DNA of 16,710 bases, from NCBI GenBank assembly GCA_963664395.2, contig CAXXIS010000005.1:1-16710 (forward strand), given 5' to 3'. The position numbers were made by a program, and so were the translations under genes. The stretch is from Candidatus Binatia bacterium (GTDB taxonomy: Bacteria; Desulfobacterota; Binatia; Bin18). Within the stretch, counting starts at the first letter, position 1; each line of letters opens with the position of its first letter. The notes under the pieces are model-generated. The model searched no databases. It saw only the letters and a list, made by a program, of their open reading frames with translations, and was not told the DNA's origin. Shown piece after piece: positions 8,658-10,237 of the stretch.

Positions 8658-10237
8658 ATAGCTCCTCCGATCATGCTATCCCCCCGCAACTCCCCCGACA
8701 CCAGCCTAGGCAACAGCGTATTATGCAAGGCGGCCAGGGCATGAGATTCATGGCAGTTGACTACGATGCGGTCAAGCATCGGCTGAGCGATTTCCTGGAA
8801 CAGAGCAGCCATTGATTCCGTAGGTAGGCATATCTCGAATTGCCCCATAGTTTTCCAACTGGTGCGTGGCATCCTTGTGCCTGTCGAAGCTTGATCAGTG
8901 TAGGCAACGAATTCATCGCTTGAGATACAGAAGAGGATAAAGGACGACCAAAGGTGCGCATTGGGCGCAACAACAACGATATCCGTGGAGCAAACACCCC
9001 CCACAGGCGCAATACCGACCTTGTGGAAGTACGGACGTAACTTTCCAAACAGGAACTCACCCCGTCGAAATTCATACTTGTTGCTCCCAACACCAGCCGC
9101 GGTGTCCCATTCCGAAAGTGCGATGCAGCGCTTCGGCATGTGTTCAAGTGCAATGTAGGGAGTCTCCAAGTTCATATTGTTTGGCTGAACCCCGCGCCGA
9201 GGATGTTCTGCAACATTCCCCAACTTCCCAACTTTCCATCCCTCCGGTATCTCCCCCAATTCTGAATCAACGAAACTATCAGGGAACAACGCCGCAATGC
9301 TTGGGTCCATCCCGTCAAGATACGCGTGGGCACGTTCCACGGTCCAATCAAGGGGGGAATGATTGGGAGTGTGGTTTCTGAGGGCGGCCTTGGCATGAAC
9401 GGGGTCGAAGTCTATGAACCAACTCTTGAAGAGCGCCCGCGCCATTTCTTCGAGCGTTTCGTTCATGCGGCGGCTGAGTTCGATCTTGTCGTCAAGGGTG
9501 CCGAGGATGTGGGCGATGGCGCGCTGTTCGGGGAGGGGCGGAACATCGACAGGTATTGGATGGATGAAGTTGCGATTGAGGGACGGCTGTGCGCTCCCGG
9601 AGTTGTAAGTCCGAAAGTCAAACTGTTTCAGGAAGTAGTAAGCAAAGCGTTGATCGTTTCCGTGGAAGTCGACCACGTACAGCGCGGTATTAAGCGGCCA
9701 GTAGTCCACCGGCGAATAGCTGACGACGCCGAACGAAGCACCGCTTCGACCCACCGTCACGCCTGGACCAGCAGCTCTTGCCTCGTCATGCCACCCGGTA
9801 ACGCCGAATGAACCAAGAACCGGCTTGTTTCCAGGCCGTCGAATCGCGTCGGGAAGATCATGGCCCCGCTGAAGTGTCACGAAGTCACCAAGGGGCAGGC
9901 GCTTCCACGGACTACCCGTCATCTTCTCCCGTGCCTGCCGCCGATACCACTCAGCCCCGTGTTGTTCGATGTGTTTGCGTAATGCGTCGTTATCCACGGT
10001 CTTGTGTAGAAGTAGATCAACCCGCTGCGCCATTGGCAATTCGTCTATGGCGGTGGCAAGGTTGGCTTGGTCCGTCAGGGTCAGGTTGTCTCCGAACAGC
10101 GCAATGTCTACGTCGGAGGTAGGAGTAAAAGTCTCCATAGCCCGCGACCCGAACAGTACCGCCCGCTCCACCCGCTCATTGGCGGCGAGGATGTCGATAA
10201 TCGCGGTGCGGTATTTCGCTTTCAGGCCGTCGGTCAT
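8654..10237 (-). CDS. hsdS: Fusion: minimal nucleotidyltransferase (MNT/MntA-type antitoxin, aa 1-~100) plus type I RM specificity subunit HsdS (aa 106-527)
   Basis: N-terminal LFGS-RAMETFTPTS-DVD matches GSX10DXD, with a third Asp in RVDLL. HsdS follows: WKRLPLGDFVTLQRG, GSAQPSLNR, PPLPEQRAIAHILGTLDDKIELSRRMNETLEEMARALFKSWF, SELGEIPEGWKVGKLG, GTRMPR, LHNTLLPRLVSGEL. Two TRDs are present. Confidence 0.93.
   Translation of the reverse strand: MTDGLKAKYRTAIIDILAANERVERAVLFGSRAMETFTPTSDVDIALFGDNLTLTDQANLATAIDELPMAQRVDLLLHKTVDNDALRKHIEQHGAEWYRRQAREKMTGSPWKRLPLGDFVTLQRGHDLPDAIRRPGNKPVLGSFGVTGWHDEARAAGPGVTVGRSGASFGVVSYSPVDYWPLNTALYVVDFHGNDQRFAYYFLKQFDFRTYNSGSAQPSLNRNFIHPIPVDVPPLPEQRAIAHILGTLDDKIELSRRMNETLEEMARALFKSWFIDFDPVHAKAALRNHTPNHSPLDWTVERAHAYLDGMDPSIAALFPDSFVDSELGEIPEGWKVGKLGNVAEHPRRGVQPNNMNLETPYIALEHMPKRCIALSEWDTAAGVGSNKYEFRRGEFLFGKLRPYFHKVGIAPVGGVCSTDIVVVAPNAHLWSSFILFCISSDEFVAYTDQASTGTRMPRTSWKTMGQFEICLPTESMAALFQEIAQPMLDRIVVNCHESHALAALHNTLLPRLVSGELRGDSMIGGAI

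Follow-up and report, generated by a model that had tools for sequence, protein, structure and literature searches.

The window analysed here, a stretch of 16,710 nucleotides that makes up the whole of a 16.7-kb contig (C6) in the 14-contig, 5.04-Mb assembly of Candidatus Binatia bacterium (GCA_963664395.2), carries a type I restriction-modification (RM) operon whose specificity subunit, HsdS, begins with a nucleotidyltransferase (MNT) domain of the antitoxin type. The operon lies on the minus strand and consists of five genes, hsdM, HEPN, MNT::hsdS, a coiled-coil TIR gene and hsdR, in that order, joined by four ATGA stop/start overlaps. The fusion occupies 8654..10237 as a single open reading frame (ORF) of 527 aa plus stop, with an uninterrupted translation. 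Upstream of it stand hsdM (10644..12305), which encodes the 553-aa methyltransferase subunit with HsdM_N and N6_Mtase domains (E 6e-109), and a HEPN toxin-type gene of 137 aa (10234..10647), whose start is overlapped by the hsdM stop through ATGA. Downstream, beyond the TIR gene, hsdR (4657..7812) is recognised by HSDR_N, SWI2_SNF2 and TIGR00348 and is broken in the window by single-base indels. These breaks are put down to assembly errors, and hsdS is encoded together with both hsdM and hsdR. A promoter scan, which is weak evidence, found no minus-strand sigma-70-like site inside the operon but one at 6328.

The first 101 residues of the fusion protein (9935..10237, minus strand) form a Pol-beta type nucleotidyltransferase domain. 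The translation of this part contains G30-S31-X10-D42-V-D44 together with D74, which correspond to the GSX10DXD motif and the third metal-binding Asp of type VII systems (motif definition in PMC7641770; here and below, papers are cited for those passages of their text that bear on the point). Pfam places Polbeta (PF18765) at residues 13–101 (E 6.3e-14, 52.3 bits against a cut-off of 26.9) and NTP_transf_2 (PF01909) at residues 13–66. A linker of seven residues follows (102–108; 9914..9934), which includes Met106, and leads into the HsdS body (8654..9913), made up of a first target recognition domain (TRD1), a central conserved helix, a second domain (TRD2) and a C-terminal helix. Methylase_S matches residues 110–264 (E 3.2e-22), while PADLOC Specificity_I models cover residues 109–518. 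An earlier, sequence-only reading had described this in-frame fusion with the same catalytic residues; the interval it gave, 9920–10237, covers the MNT portion as far as the codon of the internal Met106, and its description is borne out by the uninterrupted ORF, the Pfam domains and the independent contigs discussed below. The protein departs from the norm that HsdS has no enzymatic domain, its N-terminal MNT having an intact catalytic motif.

The predicted structure agrees with this division. An AlphaFold2 model, for which 28 aligned sequences were used, has a mean confidence score (pLDDT) of 86.1 and presents a compact, separate alpha/beta MNT domain at residues 1–101 (pLDDT about 90), the linker at residues 102–108 (pLDDT <50), and then the HsdS body with two beta-rich TRDs and two long helices at residues 235–275 and 474–514. 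Foldseek and the PADLOC models likewise support the two-TRD, two-long-helix architecture of HsdS, the body matching the solved structures 1yf2_A (E 6e-18), 1ydx and EcoKI 2y7c_A. The N-terminal domain superimposes on the Legionella pneumophila MNT 8xeo_B with a TM score of 0.96 normalised to the target (rmsd 1.1 Å over 100 columns) and on HI0073 (1no5_A) with a TM score of 0.86. By sequence, the sole PDB match of the MNT part is also the Legionella MNT (8xeh_E; phmmer E 7.5e-13), residues 17–101 of the query aligning to residues 23–107 of the 108-residue chain.

One of the annotation models deserves separate mention. The PADLOC Specificity_I profile PDLC03138 (485 positions) matches fusion residues 26–278, with residue 26 at profile position 25, and appears to include the MNT part. 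S subunits with an MNT domain seem to have gone into the making of this profile, which would mean that the fusion is already present, unflagged, inside annotation models.

The HEPN gene immediately upstream meets the fusion in an ATGA overlap at 10237/10234, which gives the adjacency expected of a HEPN/MNT pair. Its 137-aa product (P0002) has PF08780 as its one domain (NTase_sub_bind / HI0074 family; E 2.4e-32) and scores 76 bits with TIGR01987 against a cut-off of 55.8. It carries the motif R97-N-L-L-S-H102-T-Y104, that is, RX4HXY, which combines the RNase motif with the acceptor Tyr. The best PDB sequence match is the L. pneumophila HEPN toxin 8xdj (E 1.2e-22), and R70 aligns with R73, a residue with which the Legionella HEPN contacts its MNT.

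Integrity of the fused reading frame

Two haplotypes of the hsd operon are present in the same assembly. Window flanks 1–7784 and 10928–16710 match a stretch of the main contig C1 at 98.9% and 99.6% identity, and a comparison of the two shows how unevenly indels are spread over the window. Against the C1 haplotype, window 1–7784 has 19 single-base indels and its hsdR and AcrB-like transporter gene are broken, while window 10928–16710 differs by one 6-bp indel only. The possibility that hsdR is a pseudogene was considered and rejected: the breaks coincide with five indels relative to the other haplotype (4865, 4905, 5025, 5522 and 6452), and these are corrected in contigs from other runs whose sequence is in all else identical to the window, as in X6 record 25 (1101 nt, no substitutions and four gaps). 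In the C1 haplotype hsdR is intact and encodes 1075 aa. Most likely, then, hsdR is intact in the organism and its breaks in the window are assembly errors.

The same indels raise the question of whether a lost base could have joined two genes that are separate in the organism, since the left third of the contig shows that such errors can falsely break a gene such as hsdR. The junction at 9920 was compared with Logan contigs from four public runs, each of a different study; one of these runs, X1, is possibly the source sample, and three independent studies are counted for this reason. Contigs in all four runs cross the junction with no gaps: X1 record 8 (9514–10725) with no differences, X5 record 22 (9509–10265) with 3 substitutions, X6 record 31 (9512–10728) with 13 and X10 record 15 (9856–10206) with 1. 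No indels are listed between 8600 and 10700 in this comparison, and over the cassette from 7735 to 10725 the X1 contigs are gap-free and identical to the window. Three substitutions are listed within the MNT domain; all are missense changes, and none introduces a stop. A close homologue, P0007 (525 aa, 96% identity), is also fused, and its junction sequence is shared with P0009 and P0011; beyond these, hundreds of homologues are fused. A stop between MNT and HsdS was looked for in independent contigs and in close homologues and is absent from both. These observations confirm that the in-frame MNT::HsdS fusion is real. An origin in assembly or sequencing error, rejected on the independent contigs and the fused homologues, is extremely unlikely.

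Distribution and conservation of the fusion

The architecture is recurrent. When the whole fusion is used as query, a search whose ranking favours full-query matches, MNT included, an MNT Pfam domain and Methylase_S occur together in 52 of the 120 matches listed. Conserved HsdS peptides were used to locate 80 HsdS loci, one per species genome. At 18 of these MNT is fused to the HsdS N-terminus, at six a separate MNT ORF lies nearby (L014, L033, L035, L043, L046 and L061), and at the remaining 56 MNT is neither fused nor nearby. The MNT domain alone, used as query for longer proteins, retrieves 657 at E up to 0.001 among 889 candidates, and Methylase_S is present in 108 of the best 120. An exhaustive HMMER search of 1.84 billion cluster representatives with the same domain gives 1746 matches with E no higher than 0.001, of which 301 reach 1e-10 and 48 reach 1e-30. 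Among the best 150 of these representatives, 70 have an HsdS part and 53 are free forms of 160 aa or shorter; the other 27 are longer with no detectable HsdS part, four of them with a HEPN part. Roughly half of the nearest MNT relatives are HsdS fusions. The suggestion made from the sequence that such proteins might already sit in domain databases is amply supported, as hundreds do. Their database names are plain "restriction endonuclease subunit S".

Fused loci are found in Myxococcota, Chloroflexota, Acidobacteriota, Pseudomonadota, Actinomycetota, Kiritimatiellota, Poribacteria, WWE3 and others. The alignment of fused proteins contains many unrelated TRD1 sequences and at least two MNT subtypes, and the catalytic motif G[S/A]X10DXD is kept in 72 of 73 MNT-bearing HsdS proteins (71 distinct), the exception being N-terminally truncated and starting inside the domain. 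The gene order is always hsdM, HEPN, MNT::hsdS. A PF08780 HEPN gene, an ORF of about 137–166 aa that abuts or overlaps the start of the fusion, lies immediately upstream at 17 of the 18 fused loci. The co-occurrence of an HI0074-type gene, for which the earlier reading had proposed a search, accordingly holds for the window and for these 17 loci. Single-sequence phmmer gave only 7 of the HEPN neighbours, and the rest came from ORFs in gaps followed by a Pfam scan; all 21 such ORFs scanned, from the window, the 17 fused loci and 3 split loci, match PF08780. Of the 18 HEPNs that neighbour a fusion, 17 keep RX4HXY; L018 has H for R. Within the fetched flank an HsdR-like ORF lies downstream at 15 of the 18 fused loci, usually past one or more unrelated cargo genes.

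Several variants of the architecture were seen. Some proteins are tandem MNT-MNT-HsdS chains, among them P0063, in which two MNT domains are detected, and many proteins of 610–680 aa. At L025, L039 and L071 an extra free MNT gene lies just before HEPN, giving the order MNT, HEPN, MNT::HsdS. Four proteins that are 91–96% identical in MNT and TRD1 (P0008, P0009, P0010 and P0013) carry an extra endonuclease-like insertion of DUF559 (PF04480) and PF18741 in the central HsdS region, between the first conserved helix and TRD2 (alignment columns ~465–640).

The HEPN neighbour bears on whether the MNT domain acts on a toxin at all. It is conceivable that MNT nucleotidylates an RM subunit, DNA or a small molecule in order to regulate restriction, with the HEPN protein as a substrate-binding subunit instead of a toxin. 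The name of the neighbour's Pfam family refers to the binding of a nucleotidyltransferase substrate, an older view of HEPN along these lines is on record in PMC3710099 and PMC2701414, and the tandem chains and extra free MNT genes could point to further targets. The RX4H motif and acceptor Tyr are nonetheless kept in nearly all fusion neighbours, as counted above, and the closest solved relative is an RNase toxin that is AMPylated by its MNT (PMC11586414). A substrate other than HEPN is, on this evidence, quite improbable.

The linker of the fused proteins varies in length and sequence, with a median length of about 11 residues. In the window it holds Met106, whose ATG lies at 9922–9920 with GGGAG three bases upstream, and a second start at this codon could yield free HsdS, on which the RM system of this clade would run, with the antitoxin-bearing fusion as a minor product. 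The nearest relatives of the window retain the Met, and it is at this point of the alignment that the unfused close HsdS relatives P0019 and P0026 begin. With 3 bases, however, the gap from GGGAG to ATG is judged short, and a linker Met is present in 25 of 71 fused homologues and absent in the other 46, so that internal initiation is not a general mode. That two products divide the work in this way is improbable.

A different question is whether the fusion does anything new. HEPN-MNT may have been inserted between hsdM and hsdS and the MNT stop then lost, with the toxin-antitoxin (TA) pair and the RM system working as they do when unfused and the connection between them playing no part in regulation. 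The other operon junctions are all 4-bp ATGA overlaps, so that one change can merge frames, and the linker is short, of low model confidence and variable in both length and sequence. Split forms (L043, L046 and L061) and fused forms (L004 and L005) stand within one HEPN clade, and the 21-row HEPN tree, which comes with long-branch warnings, needs only 2 label changes, of which well-supported branches force 1. HsdS also tolerates an even larger N-terminal fusion (PMC3510504). Against such a neutral origin, the fused state is kept over many phyla and through exchange of TRD1, and HsdS-bearing forms outnumber short free ones by 70 to 53 among the best 150 MNT representatives. Where MNT stands directly before hsdS, it is fused in 18 loci and separate but adjacent in 3 (L033, L046 and L061), in a sample ranked toward fusions. 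Finally, at L046 (5245–5667) and L061 (5227–5649), where the split MNT gene overlaps hsdS, the RX4H motif is gone from the PF08780 protein upstream. A tolerated fusion without new function is a serious rival, though less likely than not.

A proposed antitoxin domain within the restriction complex

The components of the locus are familiar. Type I RM, HEPN-MNT type VII TA pairs and HEPN effectors in RM operons are all known, and the feature for which no description was found is an antitoxin domain within HsdS. The full-text literature search, which included in part the text of the HEPN census PMC3710099 and of the TA and defence surveys PMC2701414, PMC3632139 and PMC3506569 and did not extend to the figures and additional files of PMC3710099, returned no description of MNT fused to HsdS. 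This fits the earlier expectation that the function of the fusion is undiscussed, no paper on it having been found in the text so covered. The legend of Figure 5 in PMC3710099 defines "RM_TRD", and the MNT-HsdS architecture may be drawn in that figure without comment. According to the same paper, RM-associated HEPN domains fuse to nucleases, helicases and ATPases, not to methylases.

Among characterised relatives the nearest is L. pneumophila HEPN-MNT (lpg2920/lpg2921; 8XEH, 8XEO, 8XDJ), the top PDB sequence match for both proteins and the top fold match for MNT. Both pairs share GSX10DXD, RX4HXY, a short MNT devoid of the alpha4 helix and overlapping genes, by 8 bp in Legionella (PMC11586414). 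The Legionella HEPN is a demonstrated RNase toxin, and its MNT AMPylates HEPN Y105 with modest efficiency. This MNT is without the C-terminal alpha4 helix that other MNTs use to plug the HEPN dimer; its monomer binds the HEPN tetramer only, at a ratio of 1:4, via helix alpha2 and the alpha2-beta3 loop, and the free protein is modelled by its authors as labile (PMC11586414). Because the window MNT aligns to near the end of the 108-residue Legionella chain, HsdS is attached at the free, helix-less C-terminus. The Legionella MNT is a free protein of 108 residues, in contrast to the window MNT, which runs into a 420-residue HsdS in a type I RM operon. No RM context is mentioned for the Legionella pair in the text of PMC11586414 that was covered, where "restriction" occurs 0 times.

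HepT/MntA provides the chemistry. Its GSX10DXD enzyme was shown experimentally to move AMP from ATP onto the Tyr of RX4HXY, which blocks the RNase (PMC7641770). The window pair resembles Shewanella oneidensis HepT/MntA in both signature motifs and in a related fold (6m6v, 5yep), and its chemistry is probably the same. MntA differs from the window MNT in its C-terminal helix, which it inserts into the HepT dimer. With the HEPN protein above the TIGR01987 cut-off and both proteins below the NCBIfam equivalog cut-offs, the pair falls in the HI0073/HI0074 and Legionella branch and not among MntA/HepT equivalogs. The order of the genes also differs, MNT usually being first according to PMC3710099 and HEPN being first in the window.

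Three other systems show how a HEPN RNase, an MNT domain or HsdS can be wired. Like the window operon, PrrC/EcoprrI encodes a HEPN-fold RNase inside a type I hsd operon, and PrrC, which is held latent by EcoprrI, is proposed to fire once restriction is disabled (PMC3710099, PMC3632139). PrrC is regulated by an N-terminal ABC ATPase of its own and lacks an MNT partner, whereas the window HEPN is a bare protein of 137 aa and the link to the RM enzyme is made by covalent fusion of its antitoxin to HsdS. The single-chain MNT-HEPN fusions of FhepTA also hold an MNT antitoxin domain within a larger polypeptide, and the isolated domain is reported to be labile and stabilised by fusion (PMC13000451). 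There, however, the antitoxin is fused to its own toxin, while the window antitoxin is joined to a DNA-recognition subunit that has no relation to it, and its toxin is a separate protein. The engineered EcoKI HsdM-HsdS fusion ("type IMS") likewise places a large N-terminal domain on HsdS, although it is artificial, joins two RM subunits and has no TA component. It is functional in vivo, with restriction and modification compatible (PMC3510504), so HsdS accepts a large N-terminal addition.

Taken with the conserved neighbourhood, these likenesses suggest a type I RM operon that has absorbed an enzymatic (type VII) HEPN-MNT pair, with the antitoxin as the N-terminal domain of HsdS and a linked guard or stabilising function, a reading to which we give about an even chance. 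By analogy with characterised relatives, the HEPN protein would be an RNase that forms dimers and tetramers, and the MNT domain would bind it and, using ATP, AMPylate Tyr104 in RX4HXY to keep it inactive.

Each M2S1 or R2M2S1 complex of a type I enzyme contains a single HsdS. An antitoxin enzyme that works as a monomer suits this stoichiometry: each complex would carry one MNT monomer, which could dock or service HEPN oligomers at the restriction complex. The supply of antitoxin would then depend on the translation of HsdS and on whether the protein stays stable and intact. If hsdS were lost or truncated, host translation shut off, ATP depleted or the complex attacked, newly made or de-AMPylated HEPN might be left active. 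Active HEPN would be expected to stop translation, which could serve both as a second-line abortive defence and to stabilise the RM locus, in a manner analogous to PrrC held by EcoprrI. A guard or addiction function of the fusion is plausible. Of the earlier proposal that tethering ties the amount of antitoxin to the RM complex, the tether itself is confirmed, while release of the toxin on loss or inhibition of HsdS, like addiction to the locus, is a possibility. The amount of antitoxin would not be a simple 1:1 titration, since by homology MNT is an AMPylating enzyme (PMC7641770) and one Legionella monomer serves a HEPN tetramer (PMC11586414).

Several points weigh against a linked guard or stabilising function. 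A covalently modified toxin stays silent after loss of hsdS unless it is de-AMPylated or resynthesised, so that addiction would not follow of itself. Both proteins fall below the NCBIfam equivalog cut-offs (MntA NF047752, 41.3 against 60 bits; HepT NF047751, 16.7 against 60), so that the AMPylation mechanism rests on the more distant HI0073/HI0074 and Legionella branch. Met106 with its upstream GGGAG could yield free HsdS in the clade of the window. Two split loci, L046 and L061, have a free-standing MNT gene that shares 4 bp with hsdS, and the fused locus L040 has no adjacent HEPN; the fusion is therefore not obligatory. The locus counts, too, come from a ranking biased toward whole-query matches that include MNT.

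A stronger form of the proposal makes the restriction complex itself a guardee, with one MNT per complex keeping a HEPN tetramer bound to the enzyme and AMPylated. Phage anti-restriction proteins that bind or distort the HsdS/HsdM core, or destruction of HsdS, would inactivate or remove the MNT and so release an abortive RNase. This version is tentative and rather unlikely. If it were true, the fusion would represent a counterpart of PrrC-EcoprrI that is widespread, modular and wired by a covalent link. It would also give a defined physiological role to HEPN-MNT modules, the most abundant predicted prokaryotic TA modules, whose physiological function is described as obscure (PMC7641770). HEPN genes in RM loci have been proposed as second-line suicide effectors by analogy with PrrC-EcoprrI (PMC3710099), and a recurrent natural covalent link between antitoxin and HsdS provides concrete, testable wiring for that idea. 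Such wiring predicts a physical HEPN-RM complex, informative point mutants (D42/D44, Y104 and R97/H102) and clear read-outs with anti-restriction proteins.

Cargo genes and variable regions around the fusion

The gene between hsdS and hsdR (7809..8657, minus strand) encodes a 282-aa protein with a coiled coil and a TIR domain (TIR_2, E 6e-21) and has ATGA overlaps on both sides. Along its whole length the protein aligns with PDC-S66, which PADLOC lists as a candidate single-gene defence family (E 2e-97). A phmmer search of the 81 loci found no relatives of it, and the TIR cargo therefore lies outside the conserved module.

The two haplotypes of the assembly differ in just this part of the operon. 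While hsdM, hsdR and the flanks are near-identical, the cassettes between them are distinct (window 7785–10927; L081 7801–11780 on C1). The window cassette consists of HEPN, MNT::HsdS and the coiled-coil TIR gene. The C1 cassette encodes a plain 464-aa HsdS, a 522-aa PIN_4 protein, a 129-aa ThsB-like TIR protein and a 167-aa 8xMP membrane protein. A second variable site lies in the 3' part of hsdM at 10887–10948, where contigs of all four runs swap about 60 bases for differing stretches of about 20 bases and where both haplotypes differ as well, which marks a hypervariable linker near the C-terminus of HsdM.

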